This document shows positions 3,151 through 36,473 of a stretch of 41,632 nucleotides of DNA, in pieces. The notes below the pieces were generated by a model that saw nothing but the letters and a program-made list of their open reading frames with translations, ran no database searches and was not told the DNA's origin. The stretch lies in the IMG/VR virus record IMGVR_UViG_2579778554_000004. One strand, given 5' to 3'. How positions within the stretch are numbered: position 1 is the first letter of the stretch; each line of letters begins with the position of its first letter. A program made the translations under genes and the position numbers. Origin of the DNA: a virus. Its lineage: Duplodnaviria > Heunggongvirae > Uroviricota > Caudoviricetes.

Positions 3151-5613
3151 TCAATTCCCTGTTAATTGCAAAACTTGCTCTTCCAGCTTTTTAACCCTGC
3201 GTCTCATCATCGCAGATTCCAGAATCAGAGCCTCTTCATAACGGATACCGTAACATTCACCAGCCTCGACGGCTTCGCGTACCAGAACCTTTGTCTGTAT
3301 AAGTGGGTAAACTCCTGCAGAATGCTCTTCTTCCGTCACATCCCTGTATTCTGCCGGGGTCTCATTCCACTTGTCATAACAGATAAATGCCAGTCGTGAC
3401 ACATCTATGCCTTCATTCTGAAATACACTGATAACATGCTGCGCAACTGCACCAAAGTGCCATCTTGCTCCGTCTTTACCTTTCACTTCGATCCTGTCAA
3501 GGTACTGGTATGAAACCCATTCCACTCTTTCCCATGCGTCCAGTATTTTCTCATCAATAACCTCTGGAGCAGTCTTGAAACGCGCATCGGACAGCACCGT
3601 AAACGCTGACTGGGTAAATCCCCCCGACCATGCACGACCAGCCAACCCAAGAGAATAAGTATTCGTTGTCGATGGTGTCATGGCTGAATCAGAAAACTGT
3701 ATATATTCTGAATTTCCAGTAGATATTCGAATATTTCCATTTATTAGCGACATAGTGCCTTTAGTATTATCACTATTGAATAATTTCAATTGCGAACTTA
3801 TACCGCCTCCCACAGCCAGAGATACATCGCCTTCAGCAAGCATTCTGAATTTATCTGCAGAAACAAGCGTCTGGTTAGCAAGGTTAAAATATTTAACCCA
3901 CCATTCAAAACGCCCTGACATAGTCCCAACGTACTGACCAAGCGCAGGGACGTGAACAACATTGCTATTTGTAGTGCCGTCTATACTGGAAATACCAGTC
4001 ACCGCTGATGCAGAACTCAGAATATTATTTCTGTCACCCGGATGTTTAATTTCAACAAAGTTCCTGATACACCCTTCCTCGAAGGTAACCACGCCGGAAG
4101 AACTATACATGGGGAATATTGACGCATAATTACTGCGTGCAGCATCTAAGAAACGAATGGTTGTAGATGTCTGCAGATCTCCTGATTCATTTTTCCCATC
4201 ACACCCAGTCATTAGAATATTACTGGCAATATTATTATTTCCCTGAACGGTGACTCCGTGCGCCTGCTTTGCGTCCGATTCAGAGTAATCAACCAGCACA
4301 TTCGAAATCAGGTTACCAGTCCCCTTGCCAACAACTACTGCGGCGTATTTTGGGTTGTTAGCCATTACACTGCTAATGATATTATTCGTTGGGGCAGTTT
4401 CCGTCTCAGTTCCATTGTAAACAACGTGCTGACACTCTTCACCAATAACATTGCTGACAATGTTATATTTTGCTGCTGTTTTAAGTTCCACTGCACCAAA
4501 CTGAGGATAATTTCTGGCTATCACACCATCAATTAGCGTATTTTGCGATGAATCAAAAAGCACACAACCTGCTTTTTTATTATTTGCGAACCCTAAATAC
4601 TCTCCTCTTATATCTCTAACAATGTAACCTGACGGAATACCATTATTCGGATAAGCGATCAAGCTAAATCCTGTTCCTCGCGTATTTGTAAATCTGATAT
4701 TTTTAACCGATACATCATGGCCACCTGAAAATGACACCTGGTGTCCCTGCACACTATCATCTGATTTATTTCCCATAATTGTTAGCGTACTAAGCATGCC
4801 ACCATCGGGCATGTTAAAAACCAGATGATTACCATCTCTGTCATACTGTTTTATCGTTCCCCCACCTGTTCCGTACAAGCCACAACGTGAAAGAGAAACT
4901 AAAGATGTATTGAATACCCCTTCCGGAACAAAAACACTGCTAAACGAATGTAATGATTTTGTAAAAGCCTCCTTGTTATCATTTAAGATTCCATTTTGAG
5001 CTCCAAAATCCTTAATGCTGACACCATCACGCATCTTATCCTGGAGTGTTCTGTATACCGCTCCAGAACCATACTGAATAAACCAACCAAAACCACCAAC
5101 AACCCCGGCGATTGCAGCATCGACATAATTACGCATTGAGCGATTATTTACAGCGTCCTGCTCAAGTGATGGATCGGCAAGGTTAGATATTCTGTTTTGC
5201 TTTGCATCGTAATATTTTGCAAGCAAAGATGGTTTCATCAATGCACGTCTGAACCACCCAAAACATCGCTGGATCAGCATCGTCAGGTAGTCAAATGCAT
5301 CCTCATGAACTTCGGGGAAAAATTTTCCCTGATTGCGAAGATCAGTCTCCTGCACCACATCAAGCACACGCTCTATCGTGATTCGCCAGCCAGCAGCAAG
5401 CGGCGACGGAAGAACCACTGCACCGCCACTATAAGTTCCCGCCCCTGTTACCGTATAACCAGCATCCAGCACTAGTTTTGTAACGTTACCGTTAAGGTCA
5501 GACACCTGAACAACCAGGTCGGATTTTTTGAAAATACGGAAGGTATACGGAAATGATGTCGTAACGCCGTTACCTGTGTATTCGTTGTGGTCAACTTCGG
5601 TTGAGACCGTCAT
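3151..5613 (-). CDS. Tailspike protein with C-terminal intramolecular chaperone (peptidase S74-like) domain
   Basis: 820 aa; conserved podovirus head-binding N-terminus; Gly/Asn/Ser-rich beta-helix-like centre; C-terminal SDARFK...WHFGAVAQHV chaperone motif. Confidence 0.9.
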   Translation of the reverse strand: MTVSTEVDHNEYTGNGVTTSFPYTFRIFKKSDLVVQVSDLNGNVTKLVLDAGYTVTGAGTYSGGAVVLPSPLAAGWRITIERVLDVVQETDLRNQGKFFPEVHEDAFDYLTMLIQRCFGWFRRALMKPSLLAKYYDAKQNRISNLADPSLEQDAVNNRSMRNYVDAAIAGVVGGFGWFIQYGSGAVYRTLQDKMRDGVSIKDFGAQNGILNDNKEAFTKSLHSFSSVFVPEGVFNTSLVSLSRCGLYGTGGGTIKQYDRDGNHLVFNMPDGGMLSTLTIMGNKSDDSVQGHQVSFSGGHDVSVKNIRFTNTRGTGFSLIAYPNNGIPSGYIVRDIRGEYLGFANNKKAGCVLFDSSQNTLIDGVIARNYPQFGAVELKTAAKYNIVSNVIGEECQHVVYNGTETETAPTNNIISSVMANNPKYAAVVVGKGTGNLISNVLVDYSESDAKQAHGVTVQGNNNIASNILMTGCDGKNESGDLQTSTTIRFLDAARSNYASIFPMYSSSGVVTFEEGCIRNFVEIKHPGDRNNILSSASAVTGISSIDGTTNSNVVHVPALGQYVGTMSGRFEWWVKYFNLANQTLVSADKFRMLAEGDVSLAVGGGISSQLKLFNSDNTKGTMSLINGNIRISTGNSEYIQFSDSAMTPSTTNTYSLGLAGRAWSGGFTQSAFTVLSDARFKTAPEVIDEKILDAWERVEWVSYQYLDRIEVKGKDGARWHFGAVAQHVISVFQNEGIDVSRLAFICYDKWNETPAEYRDVTEEEHSAGVYPLIQTKVLVREAVEAGECYGIRYEEALILESAMMRRRVKKLEEQVLQLTGN

Positions 5614-5717
5614 GTTAAATCTCCAGATAGTCGCAGCACCCGTTGCGCCGCATATCTGGTTATTCTATTACCCGAAAAACCATATATGGATAGAGAGACT
5701 GTGAATATGAATAGATA

Positions 5718-5732
5718 TTACCTTTCAGGTAA
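5718..5732. promoter_or_regulatory. Operator-like palindrome TTACC-N5-GGTAA (site 1 of 13)
   Basis: attacctttcaggtaat; intergenic, upstream of LexA box and the 5810 gene. Confidence 0.5.
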
Positions 5733-5769
5733 TTTTCAAAACGTGCTGGATAGCAAACAAATTATTTGC

Positions 5770-5789
5770 TACTGTATAAATATACAGTT
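5770..5789. promoter_or_regulatory. LexA (SOS) box
   Basis: TACTGTATAAATATACAGTT: CTGT-N8-ACAG matching the E. coli consensus at 18 of 20 positions; 6-20 nt upstream of the next start codon. Confidence 0.65.
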
Positions 5790-5809
5790 ATTGCATGGAG
5801 AAGATTAAG

Positions 5810-6067
5810 ATGCAGCAGTATCACTATCCACTGGAAGAGGGATTTACCGAAAGGATTCACACGCCGGGAGGCGTCAGGTCACTGGTGGAGGGATCGCACT
5901 TGATGAAATTACTCCGGGATCTCGATAAGGATGGATTTAATGTCGATGGTCCACTTGCCGAACTGACTGCACTGATTAACTACGTCACCAGCTCACAGAT
6001 GTCTATGCGGGATCTGCAAACACATCTCGACTATTGTGCCGAACAATTACGAAAACAAACCAGATAA
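5810..6067 (+). CDS. Small SOS-box-associated protein consisting only of the domain found at the C-termini of the two antirepressor-like proteins; candidate antirepressor
   Basis: GGAG RBS 9 nt upstream of ATG 5810 (alternative ATG 5795); alignable to the C-terminal ~75 aa of the 6385 and 8152 gene products. Confidence 0.6.
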   Translation: MQQYHYPLEEGFTERIHTPGGVRSLVEGSHLMKLLRDLDKDGFNVDGPLAELTALINYVTSSQMSMRDLQTHLDYCAEQLRKQTR

Positions 6068-6070
6068 GGT

Positions 6071-6099
6071 TTGTAATTACCAAGTGGAGTGCTTATATT
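6071..6099 (+). promoter_or_regulatory. Sigma70-like promoter (TTGTAA-17-TATATT) abutting an operator
   Basis: -35 6071-6076, -10 6094-6099, operator palindrome 6099-6113 immediately downstream. Confidence 0.45.
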
Positions 6100-6384
6100 T
6101 ACCTTTGCGGTAAATTTACACCGCACTCCTCTTGTGCCATAGTAATCGGGCACTGGCAAAATCCAGTGCCGGGATTGGTCTCCCGGATTACTAAGTGGCG
6201 CATACCACGCCAGACGTGGTTTTTTTATGCGTATAGCACAGTCATGCCAGAATTATGGTGGGCTGAATGGGGGTCCGAAAGGACGCCGGTACCACTTAGG
6301 CCGGTAAGACCAACTCCGTTCAGTTCACCACCATCTGATTGGTCTCAGCGGTGGTGATGTAATTCGCTAAGTGGAGACGCCATC
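6099..6384 (+). repeat. Left copy of duplicated ~285-nt structured leader (operator, hairpins, intrinsic terminator, pre-RBS hairpin) upstream of the antA-like gene
   Basis: Reverse-complement match to 8848-9131 with compensatory substitutions in stems; begins with TTACCTTTGCGGTAA. Confidence 0.75.
6204..6226 (+). terminator. Intrinsic terminator or attenuator inside the leader
   Basis: ACCACG-ccaga-CGTGGT followed by TTTTTT; alternative pairing GGCG/CGCC upstream could compete. Confidence 0.55.
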
Positions 6385-7041
6385 ATGAACGCTCAACTCA
6401 TCCCCGTATTCAACGGCACTATCGCCAACGAAACCACTCTTCTCGTTAATGCTCGCGATTTACATACTTTTCTTGGGGTAGGTAAACGCTTTGCATCGTG
6501 GATTACAGAACGCATTGCTGAATATGGTTTCGTTGAAAATCAGGACTATATTTTGGTTTCCCCAAATCGGGAAATCAAAGGTCGAGGAGGCGATCGCCGT
6601 AGCAAAGACTATCACCTCACCCTCGATACGGCCAAAGAAACTGCGATGGTCGAGCGCAACGAAAAAGGCCGCCAGATACGCCGATACTTCATTGAATGCG
6701 AGAAACGTTTAAGACAACAAGAAACAAAGGTGGAGAAGGTCTTGTCAGGCTTCATGCCCGCCATTATGGAGGCGATCAAGCTGGAAGACAAAAAAGAATA
6801 CAGTGCCCCACTGAAGCCCGGCTACCGCAGTCTGATTCACTCGCCGTCGGGTGTTCTCGGCCTGACGGAGAACTCACTGCTGATGAATCTGCTGAACCAG
6901 TTACAGGAAGACGGGCACGACGTATCGGGCGCGGCGGCGGAGCTGACCACCATGTTCTGCTACATCGTCGGTGTGAGCAAATGCCTGCGTGATATCCAGA
7001 CCCACGCGGAGTACATCAACGACAAGGCAGGGTTCTTCTGA
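6385..7041 (+). CDS. Antirepressor-like protein, AntA/AntB-type N-terminal domain plus shared C-terminal domain
   Basis: ARDLHTFLGVGKRFASWITERIAEYGFVENQDY pattern; C-terminal ~85 aa near-identical to C-terminus of the 8152-8847 product. Confidence 0.8.
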   Translation: MNAQLIPVFNGTIANETTLLVNARDLHTFLGVGKRFASWITERIAEYGFVENQDYILVSPNREIKGRGGDRRSKDYHLTLDTAKETAMVERNEKGRQIRRYFIECEKRLRQQETKVEKVLSGFMPAIMEAIKLEDKKEYSAPLKPGYRSLIHSPSGVLGLTENSLLMNLLNQLQEDGHDVSGAAAELTTMFCYIVGVSKCLRDIQTHAEYINDKAGFF

Positions 7042-7060
7042 CGGCGGCGGCACAGGGACG
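6789..7060. repeat. Inner inverted repeat, left copy (3' end of antA-like gene)
   Basis: Near-identical by eye to reverse complement of 8132-8394. Confidence 0.8.
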
Positions 7061-7076
7061 TGCAAAACGAAACTAT

Positions 7077-7090
7077 CGTGACATGTCACA
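7077..7090. promoter_or_regulatory. Conserved 14-mer CGTGACATGTCACA (copy 1 of 3)
   Basis: Identical 14-mer also at 27323-27336 and 29541-29554; contains palindrome GTGACATGTCAC. Confidence 0.4.
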
Positions 7091-7114
7091 GGCCGCTTTC
7101 GCGGCCTTGTTTTT
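7091..7114 (+). terminator. Intrinsic terminator after antA-like gene
   Basis: GGCCGC-tttc-GCGGCC followed by TTGTTTTT. Confidence 0.6.
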
Positions 7115-7345
7115 AACGAATGCCACCGCCGCCTGGGCGGGAATCCGCAGAACGCCCACCGCAGCGGGAGCCGTCAGCGGCAGTATCGCTGTCGTGCTGA
7201 CAACGACCGGCAAAGGCCTGAGTTGAAGCTACCAGAGACAACAAAACGAACAGTGCAGCAAATGCTTTTTTCATTGTGAAATTTCCATCTATAAGCCACC
7301 TCAATGTGGCGTCAATGAGTGTAGCACTGACTTTTGTTTCGTCCA

Positions 7346-7368
7346 CAAAAAAGCCCGCGCTGCGGGCT
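7346..7368 (-). terminator. Intrinsic terminator for the 210-aa gene
   Basis: Hairpin GCCCG-cgctg-CGGGC immediately after stop at 7373, followed on minus strand by U-run (A-tract 7346-7351 on plus). Confidence 0.65.
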
Positions 7369-7372
7369 TCTA

Positions 7373-8005
7373 TTAATGCAGTTTATCTTTGCTTATAACC
7401 AGTAGTCTGTGGGTATGCACATCTTTATCACTGCCCCAACAGAAATCAGCCCACTGGCTATAGAAATCATCCCATGATGTCATGAAGCTAAGAGGTCTAT
7501 CTTCTTCAGAGCCATCTGAAACGTATACATTATATCCTGGGGTGTTTATAGCCCAAGAAATCATTCTTTCCCAGAATCTTCTCCCATCGATTGTTTGTTG
7601 CTCATCAGATACAACGATCGCATATTGCTCTAGGAAGAACTGAAAAAAAATCTGAGGCAAACCATGAACAGCACGGTCATGAATAACATTAGGCGTACGC
7701 CATACCATGATCTGCGTACATGTTCTTTTGGCTTCGACGATATCTTCCCGAAAGATTAACTTAACCGCATACACCGTTTCTGGAGTATCGCTGGTAGTAA
7801 TCATTCTGTAATGATCGCCATTACAAGATTTTACAAGGCGATAACCATAAGGTGTTGTGAATCCCGGAAGAACGAAATCAACCACACCTTTCGCTAAGTA
7901 GCTTTCGGTGTGACTAGTGTTCTTCTCAGACATGTTCAGTTTTCTATCGAAATCTGCTTCTGGGATAATGTATGGCATCGCTTTTCTTGTTGTATTTGTT
8001 CTCAT
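7373..8005 (-). CDS. Hypothetical 210-aa cytoplasmic protein, orphan accessory gene (no family recognised)
   Basis: Strong SD GGGAGG before ATG; own operator-bearing upstream region and own terminator; AT-richer than flanks by eye. Confidence 0.75.
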   Translation of the reverse strand: MRTNTTRKAMPYIIPEADFDRKLNMSEKNTSHTESYLAKGVVDFVLPGFTTPYGYRLVKSCNGDHYRMITTSDTPETVYAVKLIFREDIVEAKRTCTQIMVWRTPNVIHDRAVHGLPQIFFQFFLEQYAIVVSDEQQTIDGRRFWERMISWAINTPGYNVYVSDGSEEDRPLSFMTSWDDFYSQWADFCWGSDKDVHTHRLLVISKDKLH

Positions 8006-8064
8006 TTCGTCCTCCCATGTTTGGCTACAGGACGCGTTTTGAAGGGAAGATTAAAAATGCTTTC

Positions 8065-8079
8065 TTACCCTTGAGGTAA
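8065..8079. promoter_or_regulatory. Operator-like palindrome TTACC-N5-GGTAA (site 3)
   Basis: ttacccttgaggtaa, about 60 bp upstream of the 210-aa gene start. Confidence 0.5.
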
Positions 8080-8131
8080 TAGTACGCTATTCACCCCCAG
8101 TCTGCAATCTGTACAGAATTATTTAAAGGCA

Positions 8132-8394
8132 CATCCCTGTGCCGCCGCCCGTCAGAAGAACCCTGCCTTGTCGTTGATGTACTCCGCGTGCGTCTGGATA
8201 TCACGCAGGCATTTGCTCACACCGACGATGTAGCAGAACATGGTGGTCAGTTCCGCCGCCGCGCCCGATACGTCGTGCCCGTCTTCCTGTAACTGGTTCA
8301 GCAGATTCATCAGCAGTGAGTTCTCCGTCAGGCCGAGAACACCCGACGGCGAATGAATCAGGCTGCGGTAGCCGGGCTTCAGCGGGGCACTGTA
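8132..8394. repeat. Inner inverted repeat, right copy (3' end of bro-like gene)
   Basis: Reverse complement matches 6789-7060 with only a few mismatches. Confidence 0.8.
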
Positions 8395-8847
8395 GGTTTT
8401 GTTCTCTATCTTCATCGCCTGCATTACTGCTGACGCCGTGGCGTTGGCTACCTGGTCGGCAACCATCTTTATGCGTTCTTCCTGCGGGAGCGAGTTTTTA
8501 ATGTAACTTCCGGTGCGGCGGATCTGAGGAAGAACCTCACCTGTAACCCATTTACGAAAGCGGTATGGGATAGTGCCTGGTGTCACCGCATCGCGGCAGC
8601 GGAGGATCAGTGTGTAGAGGCCTGACTCGGAGATAATGATCGATTCTTGCTCACCGCCAGGGGTGTCGGTTGAAGCGACGCCCTTCTCATCATCATCAAG
8701 TTTTCGAACAGCATCTCGATGGTTTGCTATGCCTATAGCCCGACAAACATCTGAAGCGATAAACCATGGCTCACCATTAATGACGATTACCCGTATATCG
8801 GCTTGAGATTCGAAAGAAAAAATGGACGTGCTTTTTGTAGCTGTCAT
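8152..8847 (-). CDS. Antirepressor-like protein, Bro-N/P22-Ant-type N-terminal domain plus shared C-terminal domain
   Basis: N-terminus IRVIVINGEPWFIASDVCRAIG typical of Bro-N/Ant; C-terminus identical to antA-like C-terminus. Confidence 0.8.
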   Translation of the reverse strand: MTATKSTSIFSFESQADIRVIVINGEPWFIASDVCRAIGIANHRDAVRKLDDDEKGVASTDTPGGEQESIIISESGLYTLILRCRDAVTPGTIPYRFRKWVTGEVLPQIRRTGSYIKNSLPQEERIKMVADQVANATASAVMQAMKIENKTYSAPLKPGYRSLIHSPSGVLGLTENSLLMNLLNQLQEDGHDVSGAAAELTTMFCYIVGVSKCLRDIQTHAEYINDKAGFF

Positions 8848-9131
8848 AGTGGTTACCTTTTAGTCTGGTTAATCACCACTACCGACGCCAATCGGTTGGT
8901 GGTGAACTGTGCAGGGTTGGCGTAACCGGCTAAAAGGACCCGGCGCACCTTTCGGTGCCCCCACACAGCCCACCATAATACGAATGTGGCCGTGCTATAC
9001 GCATAAAAAAACCGCTTGCGCGGTGAATGCGCCTTTTAGTAATCCGGGACGCCAATCCCGGCACTGGATTTTGCCAGTGCCCGATTACTATGGCACAAGA
9101 GGAGTGCGGTGTAAATTTACCGCAAAGGTAA
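8848..9131 (-). repeat. Right copy of duplicated structured leader, upstream of the bro-like gene
   Basis: Reverse complement of 6099-6384; operator TTACCGCAAAGGTAA at 9117-9131; terminator hairpin ACCGC-ttgc-GCGGT plus A-run 9005-9024. Confidence 0.75.
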
Positions 9132-9278
9132 TGATAGACACAGACAAACATTAAAATCAACCATATTTGGTTAATGTGTGTAAAAGAGCCAGCAGCGAGA
9201 AATTGTGCCGCGACGTAAAATAACGAGCATCTGCTGGCTTACAACCAGCGATGTTTCAAATTTGTCACTACTATCAAC

Positions 9279-9626
9279 GTGCCATTACACGGCGCAGAGC
9301 TTTATGTCGTCAATCACAACGGCGAACCGTACACCCCAATGAAACCTATCGTTGAAGGCATGGGTATGGTTTGGGCTGCTCAATTTGTTAAATTAAAACA
9401 GAGATTTGTCAAAGGTATTTCGGAAATCGAAATACCTTCTGCTGGCGGTAAACAGTTAATGATATGCCTTGCCTTTCGTAAGTTTGCGGCTTGGCTTTCA
9501 AGCATTCAGCCAAACAAAGTCTGCCCTGTAATCCGCGAAAGTATTGAAACATCAACCGTATCGATATCGACACGGTTGATTATGACGGTAACTTATTTCC
9601 GTGTGTACTATTTCTCCCGCCACTAA
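9279..9626 (+). CDS. Hypothetical protein, possibly a truncated antirepressor-like N-terminal domain
   Basis: 115-aa ORF; C-terminal 20 aa look like out-of-frame sequence; family assignment uncertain. Confidence 0.4.
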   Translation: MPLHGAELYVVNHNGEPYTPMKPIVEGMGMVWAAQFVKLKQRFVKGISEIEIPSAGGKQLMICLAFRKFAAWLSSIQPNKVCPVIRESIETSTVSISTRLIMTVTYFRVYYFSRH

Positions 9627-9923
9627 CTAATTATATTTGTCTTTAAAAATTTCATGGAATGATTGAGAGTAAGACTTGCCATACTTCAAATAACATTCTT
9701 CATCCAACTTTCTTAATGAACTTCGAACCTGTTCGTGGCATACAGCAAAAAAAACAAGTCCGCCGCCTATTAATACCCCTATTGATATTGGGTTCGCAAC
9801 ATCCCATAAAAAATCGGCTAACAGAGCAAATACCCCACCGCCGCCAATAAATGCCCCTATAGCTCGGTTCGTTTTAGCTTGCTCATAGCGTCTCTCTAAC
9901 TCACTAAACTCTTTAATATCCAT
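9627..9923 (-). CDS. Small two-TM membrane protein; candidate superinfection-exclusion or toxin-like factor
   Basis: GAGGTG RBS; two Gly-rich hydrophobic helices (GAFIGGGGVFALL, IGVLIGGGLVFFAV); AT-rich. Confidence 0.55.
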   Translation of the reverse strand: MDIKEFSELERRYEQAKTNRAIGAFIGGGGVFALLADFLWDVANPISIGVLIGGGLVFFAVCHEQVRSSLRKLDEECYLKYGKSYSQSFHEIFKDKYN

Positions 9924-10000
9924 ATAAGCACCTCTATAAAATTACTTCATCACCGGATCCACCTGGTTTATTAGTGGCGCAATCCAGAACAGATGTTTTA

Positions 10001-10849
10001 TTATTGTGAAGTTTTCATTGCACGATTTTCAGCTCTGAATTCAAGAACCGTTTCAATATTTCTTTCCTTCAGCATATCCATAACATTTTTATTCATTTGA
10101 CTATCACTGGTTAATAACTGATAAACGTTTCTTTTCTCTTTATCAGAATTTTCTTTAACAGCTGATTTGCATGACAAATGCTTATTGAAATTTTCTACAT
10201 CGCTAGTACATGAATTTACGGCTGCGGATGAAATATCAGACGCTGAAGAAACACCGTCATCTAAACGTTTTATAGCATTTTCTATACATGAGTTAAGGGA
10301 ATAAACGACAACTGAGCGATACCCTTCAGACGCACACCATTCTAAATTTCTTGAAGGATCGAGTGGTTTTACTTCGCTGGATTGAATTAACTTGTCAAAC
10401 ACTGACTTATATTCAATCTGTTTTTTATCTATAGCCCATACCTCAGTAGCTGATTTATAATGCCCAGTATGCTTATTAACATCAAACCCATGTTTTATAA
10501 GCAAATCTGCCCATGAAAGATTTATTGATTCATTGTTATGAGGCCATTTCCCTGTCAGAACCGCCCCCATAGACCCCATATATCCGCCATATGATGGTAT
10601 AGCACCATGGCTCAATAACTTCTCAGCAACCACAGGGCAATTAATTACATAGGAGACGTAAAGCCCATTCCATAAAGCCCCTCTATAGTAATCGCCGCGA
10701 TTAGGTTCTTTTAAGTCGATAGCCTTTGATAATTGTTCACACGTTTTGCATGCATCAAAGTTATCCTTATTGCATTGCAATGAACTGGCGGCTGTAGGAT
10801 TTACAGCGACTATTGAAAGCACAATGCCAAACAAATTTATTTTTTTCAT
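10001..10849 (-). CDS. Secreted protein with possible ankyrin-like repeats, AT-rich moron coupled to the late operon
   Basis: Signal peptide MKKINLFGIVLSIVAVNPTAASS; many Cys; start 1 nt after stop of the 1129-aa gene. Confidence 0.65.
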   Translation of the reverse strand: MKKINLFGIVLSIVAVNPTAASSLQCNKDNFDACKTCEQLSKAIDLKEPNRGDYYRGALWNGLYVSYVINCPVVAEKLLSHGAIPSYGGYMGSMGAVLTGKWPHNNESINLSWADLLIKHGFDVNKHTGHYKSATEVWAIDKKQIEYKSVFDKLIQSSEVKPLDPSRNLEWCASEGYRSVVVYSLNSCIENAIKRLDDGVSSASDISSAAVNSCTSDVENFNKHLSCKSAVKENSDKEKRNVYQLLTSDSQMNKNVMDMLKERNIETVLEFRAENRAMKTSQ

Positions 10850-10850
10850 C

Positions 10851-13800
10851 CTATTTCATCTGCTCTTCAACTTTATTCAGTAATGGTGATATCGCCCACA
10901 GGTTCTGAAAAGGTAGCATTTTACGGACCGCGTGGGTTTGCTGGCTGTCAAATTCTCCGTTAAGTACACCATTCGCAACCGTCGCGGCATCACCGCCAAG
11001 ATCAAAGGTAGGACCAAGTAAAGCACCAATAGCATTACGACTCTGAAACCTTGATACCGGAGGCGCACCAAACATCGCGCCAAGACCAAACCTACCGCCG
11101 CTTATGTTCTCAACGGTATTCAGCGGCTCAGAGAGCCAGCCAAGCATTCCGCCCCGGTCGATCCCCTCTTTCACAAGGTTATTCCAGCTGTAGTCGATAT
11201 CGCGACCGCTTAACTTCTGTTTCATCATATAGACCATTGAGCCAAGCGCAATCGTGCCAAGCGCACCAAGATAGAATGCAGCATCGCCCTGCTGGATACC
11301 AGATACCAGCACCCTGTTATGCTGTGCGAAGATAAACGTTTTGAACTGCGTGATCATCTTCCAGCCTTCTTTACTAAAAAACAGCGGTGTATCACCTACG
11401 CCAGGCGTTACAATCACTGAGTCTACATCTTTCAGCACTGCAGACTGGAAAATCTCTCTAGCGAAACGGTCATCCCACAGATGACTATGCCCGGTTAACA
11501 GCCCGTCCATATCCTCTCCGTGCTTCCCGAATTGCTCCCCGATTCGGCGCAGAACATCTTCATTGATGCCGACCTGTGCCATCTTCCGCATTTCACTTTT
11601 GGAGAGCGTGCCACCAGCAGAAACTTGGCGAGCCGCGTCAAGTATCCTCGACTGCACTATCATCCCAGACCATGATTTAAGTGCGCTGTTCCACTGATTC
11701 ATCAGCGTCCAGTTACCGAATTTCTGCGTCATCCAGTTCAGACCTCGCTCAGCGGCGCTTCTCCGGCTATAGGGGTCAGTAAGATCCGCTATAGCCTTTG
11801 TACGCGTAGACAGGACATAATCAAGCCCAACTGCCATTTCTCGCAAATCCCTGGTTGCAATTTTCACTGAGTCCATATTTTTAAGCATGCTTACCATTGG
11901 TCCGAGAGATTTTCTCAGGCCATGCTGCATCATCGGTCGCATCAGATCAGTTGCAGCGGAGACGGTCATTCCACCAAGCAAACGGAGGAAGTTAATATTC
12001 CTAGCAACTCGCCCGGCACGAACAAAGAAACTGCGTGGATCTTGAGGTGCGCCGTAAGTACCAAGCAGTCGGTCACGCATAGCCGTAATATCCCTAATAT
12101 CAGCCTCCCGTTGCTTCTCAAGAGCTGCACGTCGTTTAGGTGTTTTAGCCTCTTTTATTAGCCGGGTATATTCCTCACTAACCTGACGGATTTGCTCCCC
12201 CATATCTTTACGGCCAAACTGCGCAGTCAGCTCAATTTCTGGTGCCACCTGCCGGAGATAACTTTCCATGATGTAGTTAACATCTGATTCAAGAAAATCT
12301 TCTATACGCTCATCAGGAATAAGCAGCGTTCGGCTTTTAGTGAAACCAGCCCGACCAACGAGTCTCTCTGGGATAATATCGGCTGGTACAAGCCCGGAAG
12401 GTGCGCCTATTATTTTATTCACGATCTCGTCAGCAGCGTCCTCTGCTTCCTCTCGGGATAGAGGCTCCATCTGCTTCAGTGCTCGCTCGCGGCTTGCATT
12501 CAGCCTTGTGGTTGAATTTGCCCGTTTTTGCAGTCGGCGAAGCTCAGAACGATATTTCCGTGGATTATCCAGCAACTCCATATGGCGCTGATAGACAGGA
12601 AGCTCACTCTTTGCCTGCGCTATATCATCAAGGCGTGTTTTAAGGTCAGAGCTTTCTTTCATCATTCTTGCCTGAAGTTTTTCTGATGAAGTCTCGGCCA
12701 ACTCTTTTTCTATTCTTGTAAGACGCGCCTGTGTGTCAGTCTCCTGAGATATAAGCTTATTTCGTTTATCCAGTTCTTCCATGAGTAGAATTTTTTTACC
12801 AGACCATTTCTCCGCTTCAGCGATTTCACTAGCGAGAGCATCAGCGCGCGGTGCTGATTCCTCTGCAGTTTTTAGCAATGAATTTATCTTTTCAATTCGC
12901 TGACCTGCTTTGTCAGCACCTTTGGCACTAATCCCTTGTATCCAGTTGGCAATTCGCCCTCTGAATTCAGTGCGGTCGGAAAGTATCTTATCGAACTTAT
13001 AAATGCGGGGAAGATAACTCTTCGCCGTCACGACATCGATATCCTCAGGAAGGATCCCCAATTCCTGCATACGGGCTTTTGTGGTCTCAAAAATGGGGCG
13101 GATTCTGGCGGCTGCTTGTGAAACCTCAGGAATATCACTCTGATCACCACGGCGCATAGCCATGCCAACAGCTTCATTGAAATCAATAAAGTTCATCCTC
13201 TTCACGCCGCGGGCGCTGACAGATTTGCTGTACTGCTGGTAAGCATCACGAGTAGCTTCCATCTGCTTATAAAGCATGGCGTCGTATTGCTTAATCTTAG
13301 TCTCGACTGCCGTAAACGTAGCCAACCCCTCATCATTTTTGGCGAAGAAATAGTTATTTTCGGCAAGCTGCTGGTTAATCTGACGGGAAACAAGAGATGG
13401 TGATTGCGCCAAGCGGCCAGCAGGAGTGACACTCAACGTTTTGTTAGCAAGTCCAAGTCCAGCAAGCTGTTCCTGATCGAGTGTGGTATTGAAAACCTGA
13501 GCTGCACCAATGCTTTGAGGAGAATCCATACCTCGCAAATGATTACCTACTGAGTTAACCACTGCCTCGCGCGCGCTAGGTCCAGCAAGTAGCTGTGCAC
13601 CAGCACCAAGGATCCCACCAACGAGAGCATCAACAACAACGTTCGATACGCTCTCCATCGGTGAGCGAGCTTCCTGAGTGGCCTGCAATGCGGCCTCTGA
13701 AGCAACACTGCCAGCAGCATTGGCTAAAGCAAAACGTCCGGCTGTTTCTGCAATACGACCGCCACGAACGACAGCGCCGAACGGAATAAACATAGAAATC

Positions 13801-14240
13801 GCATTGAATGGATCTGCTAATCTCATTGCTACAGAAGAGACTGTACCAGCAAATCCCAAGCCTGAATTGTATTCCATGTCAGCTCTCTGCTGATCGATTC
13901 GATGTTTAATTGCCATTGTTTCTTCATGCGAACCGGAGTTGATAAACGAATCTGCAAAATCTTCATAGCCTTTAATATCTGCTGCATCGTTATCAAATGG
14001 GTTATATCCTTCAACCCTGTCAAACTGACTGAAAGGAGCACTGGCAATAAAGCTACCCAGCGTGTTATCTATACGAAATGCTGCTTGTCTAGACCTTTGA
14101 ACGCGTTGATCACTGGTAAATGGGTTCACAGCAGAAAGCAAAGAAGGTGTTTCCATATAGAAATTACTGTCATCAGGTGCTGCTATTTGCTGAATACCCT
14201 CGCCAAGCAACTCTTTAGGATCCTGTTCATATATCGGCAT
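10851..14240 (-). CDS. Internal virion/ejection protein (T7 gp16-like position), 1129 aa
   Basis: Size and position after the 915-aa protein in T7-like order; coiled-coil-rich centre. Confidence 0.8.
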   Translation of the reverse strand: MPIYEQDPKELLGEGIQQIAAPDDSNFYMETPSLLSAVNPFTSDQRVQRSRQAAFRIDNTLGSFIASAPFSQFDRVEGYNPFDNDAADIKGYEDFADSFINSGSHEETMAIKHRIDQQRADMEYNSGLGFAGTVSSVAMRLADPFNAISMFIPFGAVVRGGRIAETAGRFALANAAGSVASEAALQATQEARSPMESVSNVVVDALVGGILGAGAQLLAGPSAREAVVNSVGNHLRGMDSPQSIGAAQVFNTTLDQEQLAGLGLANKTLSVTPAGRLAQSPSLVSRQINQQLAENNYFFAKNDEGLATFTAVETKIKQYDAMLYKQMEATRDAYQQYSKSVSARGVKRMNFIDFNEAVGMAMRRGDQSDIPEVSQAAARIRPIFETTKARMQELGILPEDIDVVTAKSYLPRIYKFDKILSDRTEFRGRIANWIQGISAKGADKAGQRIEKINSLLKTAEESAPRADALASEIAEAEKWSGKKILLMEELDKRNKLISQETDTQARLTRIEKELAETSSEKLQARMMKESSDLKTRLDDIAQAKSELPVYQRHMELLDNPRKYRSELRRLQKRANSTTRLNASRERALKQMEPLSREEAEDAADEIVNKIIGAPSGLVPADIIPERLVGRAGFTKSRTLLIPDERIEDFLESDVNYIMESYLRQVAPEIELTAQFGRKDMGEQIRQVSEEYTRLIKEAKTPKRRAALEKQREADIRDITAMRDRLLGTYGAPQDPRSFFVRAGRVARNINFLRLLGGMTVSAATDLMRPMMQHGLRKSLGPMVSMLKNMDSVKIATRDLREMAVGLDYVLSTRTKAIADLTDPYSRRSAAERGLNWMTQKFGNWTLMNQWNSALKSWSGMIVQSRILDAARQVSAGGTLSKSEMRKMAQVGINEDVLRRIGEQFGKHGEDMDGLLTGHSHLWDDRFAREIFQSAVLKDVDSVIVTPGVGDTPLFFSKEGWKMITQFKTFIFAQHNRVLVSGIQQGDAAFYLGALGTIALGSMVYMMKQKLSGRDIDYSWNNLVKEGIDRGGMLGWLSEPLNTVENISGGRFGLGAMFGAPPVSRFQSRNAIGALLGPTFDLGGDAATVANGVLNGEFDSQQTHAVRKMLPFQNLWAISPLLNKVEEQMK

Positions 14241-30162: not shown

Positions 30163-30949
30163 GGTTAACCTCCTTCGGCGGTTCTGGTAGAGGCATCCAG
30201 TGAGTTACATGTGCCCCGTAATGATTCCAGAACGACGCAACTGGCGCACTGTCTCCATCAGGGACAACCCAGTAATCGTGATGAACTTTATTATTAAGCC
30301 CATCAAACACCAGATACTCTTTACAACTTCCGGGAATGTTCTCAGGCATTCGCTCACTACAGCTTATCCAACCATCCAGAGTTACCGGAGTTGGTCCATC
30401 GAATTCGGGCATGTCAGGACCTTTTCTGATAGCTTTAGCCAGCTCCAGCGGGTCATCGTAAAGCCAGTCGCCAGTTTGTGGGTGATTTGCTTCTGCAAGC
30501 TGCGCAGCCCATTCAAGACCATCTTTTTGACCTTGGAGATAATCAAGTGGCAACTCTTCATGATTACTTGCAGGTTCGGCACCATGAAGCATGGCGGCGC
30601 GGCAGGCGTTCCAGCCTCTCACCTCTGCAATAGCGGCAACAGCATCAACCGCGTACATGCTAAGAGGATTAGGCATTGGTTTTTCTTCCGGTACTACTGG
30701 CACTGGAGGGGTGGCGTAGAGTGGAACTCCTCCCCCTCCACCAGAAAATTCATTGCGAGCGTTATACTCACGACCATCTGCGTCATCACGCATCCACGCC
30801 ACCGGTTCTGCTTCCAGCGAGGCTAACGCTATTTCATAAGCCCGGCGCTCAATATTGTCTCTCACGTCCAGGCTGCCTATGCGCTCTTTGATTTCTTTAA
30901 TCAGTTCTTTGTCGGTAAAAGTGCTCATATCAATCTCCTTTGGTACCAA
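30155..30949 (-). CDS. Hypothetical protein with DUF551-like C-terminal domain
   Basis: C-terminal W...WMPLPEPP motif typical of a common lambdoid-phage domain. Confidence 0.6.
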   Translation of the reverse strand: MVPKEIDMSTFTDKELIKEIKERIGSLDVRDNIERRAYEIALASLEAEPVAWMRDDADGREYNARNEFSGGGGGVPLYATPPVPVVPEEKPMPNPLSMYAVDAVAAIAEVRGWNACRAAMLHGAEPASNHEELPLDYLQGQKDGLEWAAQLAEANHPQTGDWLYDDPLELAKAIRKGPDMPEFDGPTPVTLDGWISCSERMPENIPGSCKEYLVFDGLNNKVHHDYWVVPDGDSAPVASFWNHYGAHVTHWMPLPEPPKEVNRG

Positions 30950-35888: not shown

Positions 35889-36473
35889 ATGAAAAGTATC
35901 CAGGACGTCCGCAGGCAAAATCTCAACGACTTGATCGACCGTGAATTCAATGGTGTTCAGACGCGGATGGCAGAAAAACTTGGAACTCAGGCAAATCTGG
36001 TAAACCGCTGGGCTCTTGGCAAGAAGGTTATCGGCGACCAGGTTGCGCGAAAAATTGAAGCTGCCGCCAATAAACCACGTAACTGGCTTGATATCGATCG
36101 CTCGCTTTCTCAGGAAGGTTTTCAGCCTGTCGGCCCAAGCGACATTGGTCAGCTGGCGGCTCACAACCTGGAACGCTGGATGAGCGAAAGCCGCGACCTT
36201 TCAACTCAGGGAAAACTTCACCGCGCATCCGGCGTCGCCCAGGTGACAATCAGCCGCCTGTTAAACAATGAGGTCAGTGTTTCCATTTCCACCCTGGAGA
36301 ATGTTGCATCAGCATTCGGGCGTCACGGCTATGAATTACTGATTCACCCGCACGACCCTGCGACCATCAACTATGACCGCTCGCGCTACGCATTGTTACC
36401 CGAAACCGAGAAAGCAAAGATCGAAAGTTACATTGAATTTGTCATCAACCAGAACGAAAAAAACAAACAATAA
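35889..36473 (+). CDS. Prophage repressor (CI-like), tandem HTH domains, no autocleavage domain
   Basis: Two XRE-type HTH regions; no Ser-Lys peptidase motif seen; divergent from Cro-like gene. Confidence 0.75.
   Translation: MKSIQDVRRQNLNDLIDREFNGVQTRMAEKLGTQANLVNRWALGKKVIGDQVARKIEAAANKPRNWLDIDRSLSQEGFQPVGPSDIGQLAAHNLERWMSESRDLSTQGKLHRASGVAQVTISRLLNNEVSVSISTLENVASAFGRHGYELLIHPHDPATINYDRSRYALLPETEKAKIESYIEFVINQNEKNKQ

Follow-up and report, generated by a model that had tools for sequence, protein, structure and literature searches.

The window analysed here, a 41,632-nucleotide stretch of phage DNA (IMG/VR record IMGVR_UViG_2579778554_000004), is identified by gene order and homology as an epsilon15-like prophage (genus Uetakevirus) of Escherichia coli, and within about 3.4 kb of it (positions 5718-9131) lie three antirepressor genes: a small ant gene, and two larger genes of AntA type and Bro-N type, each in a cassette of its own, the two cassettes facing each other (convergent). 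We consider it probable that these genes form a single locus with three layers of control stacked on one effector fold, the Ant domain, whose presumed target is the prophage repressor Rep: a LexA (SOS, or DNA-damage response) box at the small gene, antisense C4 RNAs of two specificities at the large genes, and probable repressor operators beside the promoters of the large cassettes. An earlier note, made from the sequence alone, had read the three genes as one SOS-linked module; that part of it is not supported, since the LexA box belongs to the small gene only and the large genes have their own promoters together with isrK and C4 RNAs. What the note said about the sequence itself is borne out throughout.

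In the arrangement that we propose, LexA bound at 5770-5789 would silence the 85-residue ant gene until DNA damage removed it, whereupon a tetramer of Ant would bind the C-terminal domains of the non-cleavable Rep tetramer, Rep would come off its operators and lytic growth would follow. The second layer would consist of two cassettes of the P1/P7 immI type, each running from a promoter through isrK and C4 to a two-domain antirepressor, with each C4 recognising, by pairing through a couple of short elements, the ribosome-binding region of the gene in its own cassette and no other. The large proteins could not be translated wherever the cognate C4 had accumulated, for example in an established lysogen, and could be where it was absent or outnumbered, as in a fresh infection, a superinfection by a phage of the other C4 type or a burst of transcription. 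The C-terminal domain shared by the three proteins would engage Rep and also oligomerise, the AntA and Bro-N heads being interchangeable carriers. In the third layer, Rep operators would abut each isrK promoter and one would precede the cargo, so that Rep occupancy would feed back on the cassettes.

The LexA box TACTGTATAAATATACAGTT lies at 5770-5789, where it had been proposed, with two mismatches to the 20-nt consensus; it is the sole site within three mismatches of that consensus in the 41.6 kb, none such arose in 100 shuffles, and CTGT-N8-ACAG cores occur at just two further places in the window, 22272 and 26814, both of which fit the full consensus poorly. It overlaps the likely ant promoter (a -10 candidate, TATAAA at 5775-5780, was picked out by eye only), and a LexA box occupies the equivalent place in SPC32H, phiV10, phiv142-3 and TL-2011b. 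The ant gene (5810-6067, plus strand), expected to encode 85-90 residues, encodes 85, which comprise the whole shared domain in its type 1 form. Its start is the ATG at 5810, with GGAG 9 nt upstream, and RefSeq annotates the same 5810-6067; an alternative ATG at 5795 was rejected, being out of frame in SPC32H. By tblastn the small Ant finds matches in 35 phage records, including SPC32H and SPC32N, and it is 88% identical to the SPC32H gene product annotated 'ant: anti-repressor protein' (SPC32H_020); against PDB chain 5D50_E ('Anti-repressor protein') it aligns over residues 2-84 with E=5.6e-47.

The presumed target, Rep (35889-36473, plus strand), is a two-helix-turn-helix (HTH) repressor that matches 5D50_A and 5D4Z_A ('Repressor') over its full length (E=4e-42). 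Pfam returns HTH_3 and weak HTH matches only for it and no Peptidase_S24, in agreement with the earlier view that the repressor lacks a recognisable autocleavage domain. Rep is 100% identical to the repressors of phiV10 and ZX5, and all E. coli members of the group share this one Rep sequence. Self-cleavage of LexA in SPC32H allows the antirepressor to be made, which inhibits the repressor by protein-protein contact (PMC7380047); SPC32H Ant, a tetramer, binds Rep (PMC9638917), and the C-terminal tetramerisation domain of Rep doubles as the Ant-binding domain (PMC9986798). By orthology with SPC32H, LexA control of ant and binding of Rep by Ant would operate in this prophage as well; both of these, like the anti-lysogeny activity of the Bro-N-type protein described below, are carried over from experiments on orthologues or on an identical protein. 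The small Ant/LexA/Rep switch is an established mechanism in the genus, to which this prophage adds one more member. Induction through a DNA-damage-inducible antirepressor, as first suggested, is thus upheld for the small gene and Rep by their SPC32H orthologues, and not for the large genes, which have no demonstrable SOS link.

Two side observations bear on this switch. Ant is far better conserved than its target, with 88% identity to its SPC32H counterpart against ~42% for Rep (about 51%, counted by eye, over the last ~43 residues of Rep), a gap that could come from mosaic exchange or from a conserved contact surface. In Klebsiella phage ST11-OXA245phi3.2, the box before ant is degenerate (ATGT...ACAG, not CTGT...ACAG; 7930-7965 of its stretch), and a near-perfect LexA box stands beside a UmuD-like gene elsewhere in that prophage (position 30489).

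The larger proteins carry a second version of the Ant domain behind N-terminal heads that Pfam recognises. The AntA-type protein (6385-7041, plus strand) has an AntA N-terminal domain at residues 21-92 (3.6e-27) followed by a type-2 Ant domain at residues ~137-218, and the Bro-N-type protein (8152-8847, minus strand) has a Bro-N domain at residues 17-107 (2.3e-21) and a C-terminal type-2 Ant domain. Their C-termini, described before as near-identical, are identical over the last 80 residues, and the small Ant does align, as claimed, with ~80 residues at the C-terminal end of each (41-44% identity, E about 1e-17). Residues 137-213 of the AntA-type protein align to residues 3-79 of 5D50_E (E=4.3e-14), which amounts to a complete Ant fold, and the small-Ant family phrog_450 matches the small Ant and both large proteins (the large ones at ~4e-36; residues 135-216 in the AntA-type protein). 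Twenty columns are invariant in the alignment of types 1 and 2. Type 2 has diverged from the small Ant within each phage examined, and both types, the small type 1 and the fused type 2, are retained in E. coli and Klebsiella phages, which indicates that the split is old and that both versions are maintained.

Three lines of evidence point to the shared domain as the Rep-binding part. The small Ant consists solely of this domain and suffices in SPC32H. The Bro-N-type protein is 100% identical to ORF4 (open reading frame 4) of vB_EcoP_ZX5, a phage with an identical Rep, and ORF4 acts against lysogeny: its overexpression lowered lysogens from 1e9 to 1e6 (about 1000-fold) and rep transcription by 75% (PMC9782041). 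The third line is a domain swap. Residues 1-108 of the AntA-type protein, the AntA head, are ~99% identical to a protein of an Stx1c (Shiga toxin) phage that ends in a P22_AR_C domain, and the occurrence of the same head on a P22_AR_C or an Ant tail is, by alignment, a clean swap; since in a lambdoid Stx phage this AntA head is followed by P22_AR_C, the C-terminal domain looks target-specifying. The shared domain had been put forward as a repressor-contacting or multimerising part, and in the solved SPC32H system it has both roles. A profile search with the Ant domain among 1.84 billion representative proteins returned only 66 clusters, all of them Ant-like proteins or Ant fusions, mostly stand-alone, with a few fused to AntA, Bro-N, Phage_pRha or ORF6N heads, and in the phage collection all records with an Ant domain encode a Rep homologue too.

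Stand-alone type-2 proteins also occur outside such phages: proteins of 95 residues, 62-64% identical to the type-2 domain, are found in Klebsiella and Raoultella chromosomes (6001-6288 in six stretches), in small degraded islands beside AlpA, HicAB-like and Rap1a-like genes and a T7_gp14 remnant. Examination of their context gave no indication of a target repressor.

Each large gene is preceded by the same series of RNA elements. In cassette 1, on the plus strand, a TG-extended sigma-70-like promoter (TTTACA-17-CATAGT, 6115-6143, identical at the second copy) serves isrK-1, C4-1 and the AntA-type gene. The isrK-1 leader RNA (6150-6226; Rfam RF01394, 67.7 bits against a gathering score of 50) includes a terminator (6204-6226) and two targets that are exact complements of C4-1, a1 (TTGGTCT, 6175-6181) and b1 (CTAAGTGG, 6191-6198). 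The C4-1 antisense RNA (6251-6335; RF01695, 61.2 bits against a gathering score of 45) has, from its fold and complementarity, a loop element b' (CCACTTAG, 6292-6299) and an element a' (AGACCAA, 6307-6313), and downstream of it lie the targets a2 (6339-6345) and b2 (6367-6374, which takes in the Shine-Dalgarno region of the AntA-type gene), both of which complement C4-1 and not C4-2. Cassette 2, on the minus strand, repeats the plan with a promoter at 9115-9087 (TTTACA-17-CATAGT), isrK-2 (9005-9080; RF01394, 77.9 bits) with a1 at 9049-9055, b1 at 9032-9039 and its own terminator, C4-2 (8895-8980; RF01695, 77.7 bits) with b' (CCTTTTAG, 8930-8937) and a' (ACGCCAA, 8917-8923), and the targets a2 (8885-8891) and b2 (8856-8863, at the Bro-N ribosome-binding site), which complement b' and a' of C4-2 only.

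Pairing was mapped by exact complements, RNAduplex energies being uninformative (global duplexes unfold the RNAs). The exact complements of 7-8 nt stand at equal relative positions in the two copies and there are no cross-matches; four target sites and two loop elements covary between C4-1 and C4-2. Since the four sites have changed along with the two loop elements, the RNA gate appears to be functional and the two cassettes to differ in specificity. This covariation, like the parts of the locus and the domain swap, is read directly from sequence or homology, and it argues for two C4 specificities within one prophage, of the kind that separates P1 from P7. Relatives carry one C4 type or the other, and the Klebsiella relative carries a third. 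The gaps between C4 and the start codon (49 nt in copy 1, 47 nt in copy 2) contain no icd-like reading frame. P1 immI has such a frame, icd, between c4 and ant, and through it translation is coupled with Rho termination. Intrinsic terminators follow the AntA-type gene (7090-7107, plus strand, z = -3.3) and end the unit of the Bro-N gene and its cargo (7346-7372, minus strand; GCCCGC-AGC-GCGGGC with a U-run, -16.7 kcal/mol, z = -3.3).

The third layer is suggested by the palindrome TTACC-N5-GGTAA, of which the window holds 11 exact copies against 0.03 expected (15-bp palindromes at 5718, 6099, 8065, 9117, 26285, 29449, 33470, 33532, 35819, 36531 and 36593). Around rep they overlap or flank three early promoters, two of which have pairs 62 bp apart; inspection of the rep promoter geometry from 35836 onward found no convincing -10. 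Within the locus, TTACCTTTCAGGTAA (5718-5732) lies in the divergent intergenic region between the tailspike gene and ant, about 40 bp upstream of the LexA box; TTACCTTTGCGGTAA (6099-6113) is 1 nt upstream of the -35 of the isrK-1 promoter, its centre at about -44 from the isrK 5' end; TTACCCTTGAGGTAA (8065-8079) precedes a cargo gene; and TTACCGCAAAGGTAA (9117-9131, minus strand) is 1 nt upstream of the -35 of the isrK-2 promoter, with which it makes a unit spanning 9087-9131. The copies are kept in relatives by position: the 5718-type copy is found at the same place in SPC32H and Klebsiella phage ST11-OXA245phi3.2, the one at the isrK promoter in phiV10, phiv142-3, TL-2011b and the Klebsiella phage, and the 8065-type copy before different cargo genes at the same spot in phiv142-3 and TL-2011b. 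In ST11-OXA245phi3.2, TTACC is the sole enriched 5-N5-5 palindrome, at equivalent positions, and TTACC-N5-GGTAA is retained there despite ~45% Rep identity. From position and conservation, the palindrome is probably a Rep (or Cro) operator common to epsilon15-like phages whose Reps are 42-45% identical. Phages outside the epsilon15-like group lack it at their isrK leaders; leader homology to those phages starts only at isrK itself, which suggests that the palindrome belongs to this phage's own regulon and not to a generic RNA cassette. The promoter equivalent to that of isrK/C4 in P1 carries a C1 operator, in place of which the epsilon15-type palindrome stands here.

The candidate operator at isrK-1 also lies inside a longer inverted repeat (6078-6135; GGAGTGC...GCACTCC; fold z = -2.5), and in phiV10 the corresponding site is a perfect extended palindrome, GTGCTTATATTTACC-N5-GGTAAATATAAGCAC (4283-4320 of its stretch). 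The extended repeat at 6078-6135 could act as an RNA hairpin on transcripts reading through from ant or as an extended protein site.

If these sites are Rep operators, the layers may be linked more tightly. We put forward, as a tentative idea that we think more doubtful than probable, a three-tier circuit in which the small Ant gives the first push and the release of Rep from the operators abutting isrK alters expression of both RNA-insulated paralogues. Were this true, induction would be self-reinforcing, or else Rep would drive C4 synthesis in lysogens, and a single prophage with two C4 specificities could shut off the anti-immunity genes that incoming relatives of either kind bring with them. 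Ant being tetrameric, the paralogues might also form mixed tetramers with it.

Several points weigh against the three-layer reading. The type-2 domain is only 41-44% identical to the small Ant, and we infer its binding to the resident Rep, as we do the direction of the Rep effect on the isrK promoters and the timing. ZX5 ORF4 was assayed as a glutathione S-transferase (GST) fusion, overexpressed 500-1500-fold, and that assay did not show physical binding (PMC9782041). Lacking an icd-like frame, the C4 RNAs may act in a manner different from that of P1, and isrK may add a positive element beyond our model, by analogy with Gifsy-1, where a short IsrK RNA is described as activating translation of the long transcript (PMC4825925). 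The identity of the operators rests on position and conservation, so Cro or another regulator could use the palindrome, and an operator near -44 could activate rather than repress the isrK promoter.

Among the alternatives, one assigns the large proteins mainly to competition between phages: they would be aimed at Reps made by other epsilon15-like prophages or by superinfecting relatives rather than at the resident Rep, and each C4 would also silence incoming cassettes of its own type, as in P1/P7 heteroimmunity. The divergence of type 2 from the small Ant in all phages examined, together with the age of that split, is what such a role would lead one to expect, as is the presence of two C4 specificities in this prophage and one in its relatives, and cross-talk between prophage antirepressors is documented for Gifsy phages (PMC7380047). 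We nevertheless think it unlikely, since ZX5 ORF4, an identical protein, had its effect in a phage with a Rep identical to the one resident here, and with a single Rep sequence in all E. coli members few alternative targets are known.

The single SOS module of the earlier note, in which DNA damage would induce both large genes too, we regard as rather improbable. The interval from the ant stop (6067) to isrK-1 contains no intrinsic terminator (a hairpin at 6068-6150 lacks a U-run), so transcripts released from LexA can enter cassette 1, and in phiV10, ZX5, phiv142-3 and the Klebsiella phage, with one large cassette each, that cassette is in every case found directly downstream of ant in the same orientation. 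Against this, the locus has only one LexA box, none further occurring in 5600-9300 and hence none upstream of either large gene or isrK promoter; the isrK terminator (6204-6226) stands in the path of transcripts from the ant promoter; cassette 2 is read from the other strand under its own promoter; an intact C4 translational gate guards both large genes; and in SPC32H and epsilon15 the small gene alone suffices for the switch.

That the shared domain of the large proteins is a tetramerisation module only, serving DNA-binding AntA and Bro-N heads and making no contact with Rep, is very unlikely in our judgement. The SPC32H Ant is itself tetrameric (PMC9638917), and DNA binding by Bro-family proteins has been reported (noted in PMC7313666); yet the AntA head carries a P22-type C-terminal domain in an Stx phage and an Ant domain only in phages that encode Rep, and ZX5 ORF4 reduced both lysogeny and rep expression (PMC9782041). 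Finally, a view of the large cassettes as inert leftovers from recombination among related phages is hardly credible, for although the locus is a mosaic (phiv142-3-like on the left, inverted Phi05_2388/ZX5-like on the right, with a truncated P22-type ant adjoining), both reading frames, their Pfam domains, promoters, RNAs and all eight pairing elements are intact and covarying, and the 3.7-kb arrangement is 100% conserved in 32 genomes.

The three-layer locus has a composite history that can be followed in its neighbours. It lies, as had been noted, between the tailspike gene (3151-5613, minus strand, from the open reading frame listing) and core or ejection-type genes (10851-14240 and beyond), and this layout of tailspike and small gene is the same in SPC32H and phiV10, both members of Uetakevirus. 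The neighbours annotated in RefSeq are of epsilon15 type (gp10 capsid staple, a T7-gp14-like core protein, lysis genes after the tailspike), gene order and homology are those of Uetakevirus, and Ant and Rep occur together in Uetakevirus records; a P22-like identity was rejected because neighbours and best matches are epsilon15-like. The stretch of 3.7 kb with the locus has 100% identical copies in 32 of 5,426 complete E. coli genomes, among them the cerebrospinal fluid (CSF) isolate MCJCHV-1. A repeat finder shows the halves of the locus to be an inverted duplication: 6786-7044 against 8149-8407 (259 nt, 96% DNA identity) in the C-terminal coding parts, and 6089-6358 against 8872-9141 (76-87%) in the promoters and leader RNAs. 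The left half (ant and cassette 1) resembles phiv142-3, and the right half (cassette 2 with its cargo) resembles Phi05_2388 and ZX5, in which it follows ant directly and in the same orientation, whereas here it is inverted.

The cargo downstream of the Bro-N gene is a 210-residue protein (7373-8005, minus strand; phrog_1349, unknown function) that has no Pfam or PADLOC match, and beyond it lies a 53-residue membrane or signal-peptide protein of moron type (7113-7274, minus strand; phrog_14503, 'membrane associated protein'; present in RefSeq). On the other side, a truncated P22-type antirepressor with P22_AR_N only (9279-9626, plus strand; Pfam 1.4e-25; 'incomplete' in RefSeq) is, by its domain content, a pseudogene, left over from an ant cassette of a third kind. 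At the same site TL-2011b has a Bro-N cassette, a YafO toxin gene and a complete P22-type arc-ant with sar RNA (9280-10464 of its stretch). To judge from these comparisons, the interval between core genes and tailspike gathers antirepressor cassettes, of which at least three kinds are represented. The 'P22 immI position' of the earlier note is thus an analogy only, the phage being epsilon15-like, to which the adjoining P22_AR_N remnant and the arc-ant-sar of TL-2011b nonetheless lend some substance.

Other neighbouring genes can be listed briefly. The tailspike combines an endosialidase-chaperone domain (Peptidase_S74, 1.4e-13) with a beta-helix, and given the identical prophage in a CSF isolate it is possibly capsule-directed. 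Between the core-protein genes and the antirepressor locus, both on the minus strand, are genes for a 98-residue protein (9627-9923; phrog_21905), membrane-spanning by eye, and a 282-residue protein (10001-10849; phrog_6118) with a signal peptide by eye, neither belonging to a Pfam or PADLOC family.

The earlier note implied more novelty than the system has, small Ant, Rep and the Bro-N protein each having, by sequence match, an experimentally studied counterpart. What is new here is modest: how the Ant domains are related, the covariation that sets two C4 specificities apart, and sites resembling operators beside the isrK promoters. The fold of 5D50 Ant can now be seen as a C-terminal module that is portable between AntA, Bro-N, Rha and ORF6N heads. 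In PHROGs, phrog_450 is listed with 'unknown function'; the fold gives 'antirepressor' annotations of this sort a predicted target, the C-terminal domain of Rep. The hosts are extra-intestinal pathogenic E. coli, including the CSF isolate, so the inducibility of the prophage may matter for phage release under DNA-damaging antibiotics.

Among known systems, the Ant/Rep lytic switch of SPC32H is reportedly the subject of Kim & Ryu (2013, J Virol) and Kim et al. (2016, PNAS), with structures PDB 5D50 and 5D4Z. It is of the same genus and likewise has ant divergent from the tailspike gene (Ant 88% identical), a LexA box in the same place, a Rep without a protease domain and TTACC-N5-GGTAA at equivalent sites; unlike our prophage, it has the small ant only, with no isrK/C4 cassette or large paralogue, and its Rep is just ~42% identical. 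In vB_EcoP_ZX5 (Li et al. 2022, PMC9782041), ORF4 and Rep are each 100% identical to the Bro-N protein and Rep here and a small ant, 98% identical, lies upstream, but there is one cassette, in direct orientation after ant. The study and its record leave the small ant a hypothetical protein and, in the part available, mention neither the C-terminal homology of ORF4 to SPC32H Ant nor the RNAs; the Ant fold appears not to have been recognised there (PMC9782041).

P22 immI (mnt-arc-ant-sar) is alike in placing an antirepressor locus just upstream of the tailspike, and the P22_AR_N fragment recalls it, but the working genes here are unrelated to P22 Ant, and the window has no sar RNA by Rfam, no arc or mnt in the RefSeq annotation and no intact P22-type Ant. 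The LexA-controlled antirepressors of Gifsy phages and Tum of coliphage 186 are said to be described by Lemire et al. (2011) and Shearwin et al. (1998), and the abstract of the SPC32H work reportedly calls Ant structurally distinct from them. They resemble the small Ant in that LexA represses a small antirepressor of a non-cleavable repressor (PMC7380047), and differ in belonging to another protein family. Gifsy-1 (isrK-orf45-anrP, PMC4825925) and APSE (PMC7313666) likewise place isrK and then C4 before a Bro-N or antirepressor gene, with an isrK terminator that permits short and read-through isoforms; homology to them begins at isrK, whereas the upstream operator and the Ant-type C-terminal domain are specific to epsilon15-like phages. 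The P1 and P7 immI region (c4-icd-ant; Citron & Schuster 1990, cited in PMC7313666) shares with the large cassettes a C4-family RNA co-transcribed upstream of an antirepressor, an a'/b' pair matched to upstream and ribosome-binding sites, a type-specific pairing that there amounts to heteroimmunity, and, for cassette 1, a head of the AntA family. Here, in contrast, there is no icd-like frame, the presumed target is Rep and not C1, and the C-terminus has the SPC32H Ant fold. The large genes are best understood as antirepressors of the P1 immI type, gated by C4 RNA, in which the Ant fold is put to use again.

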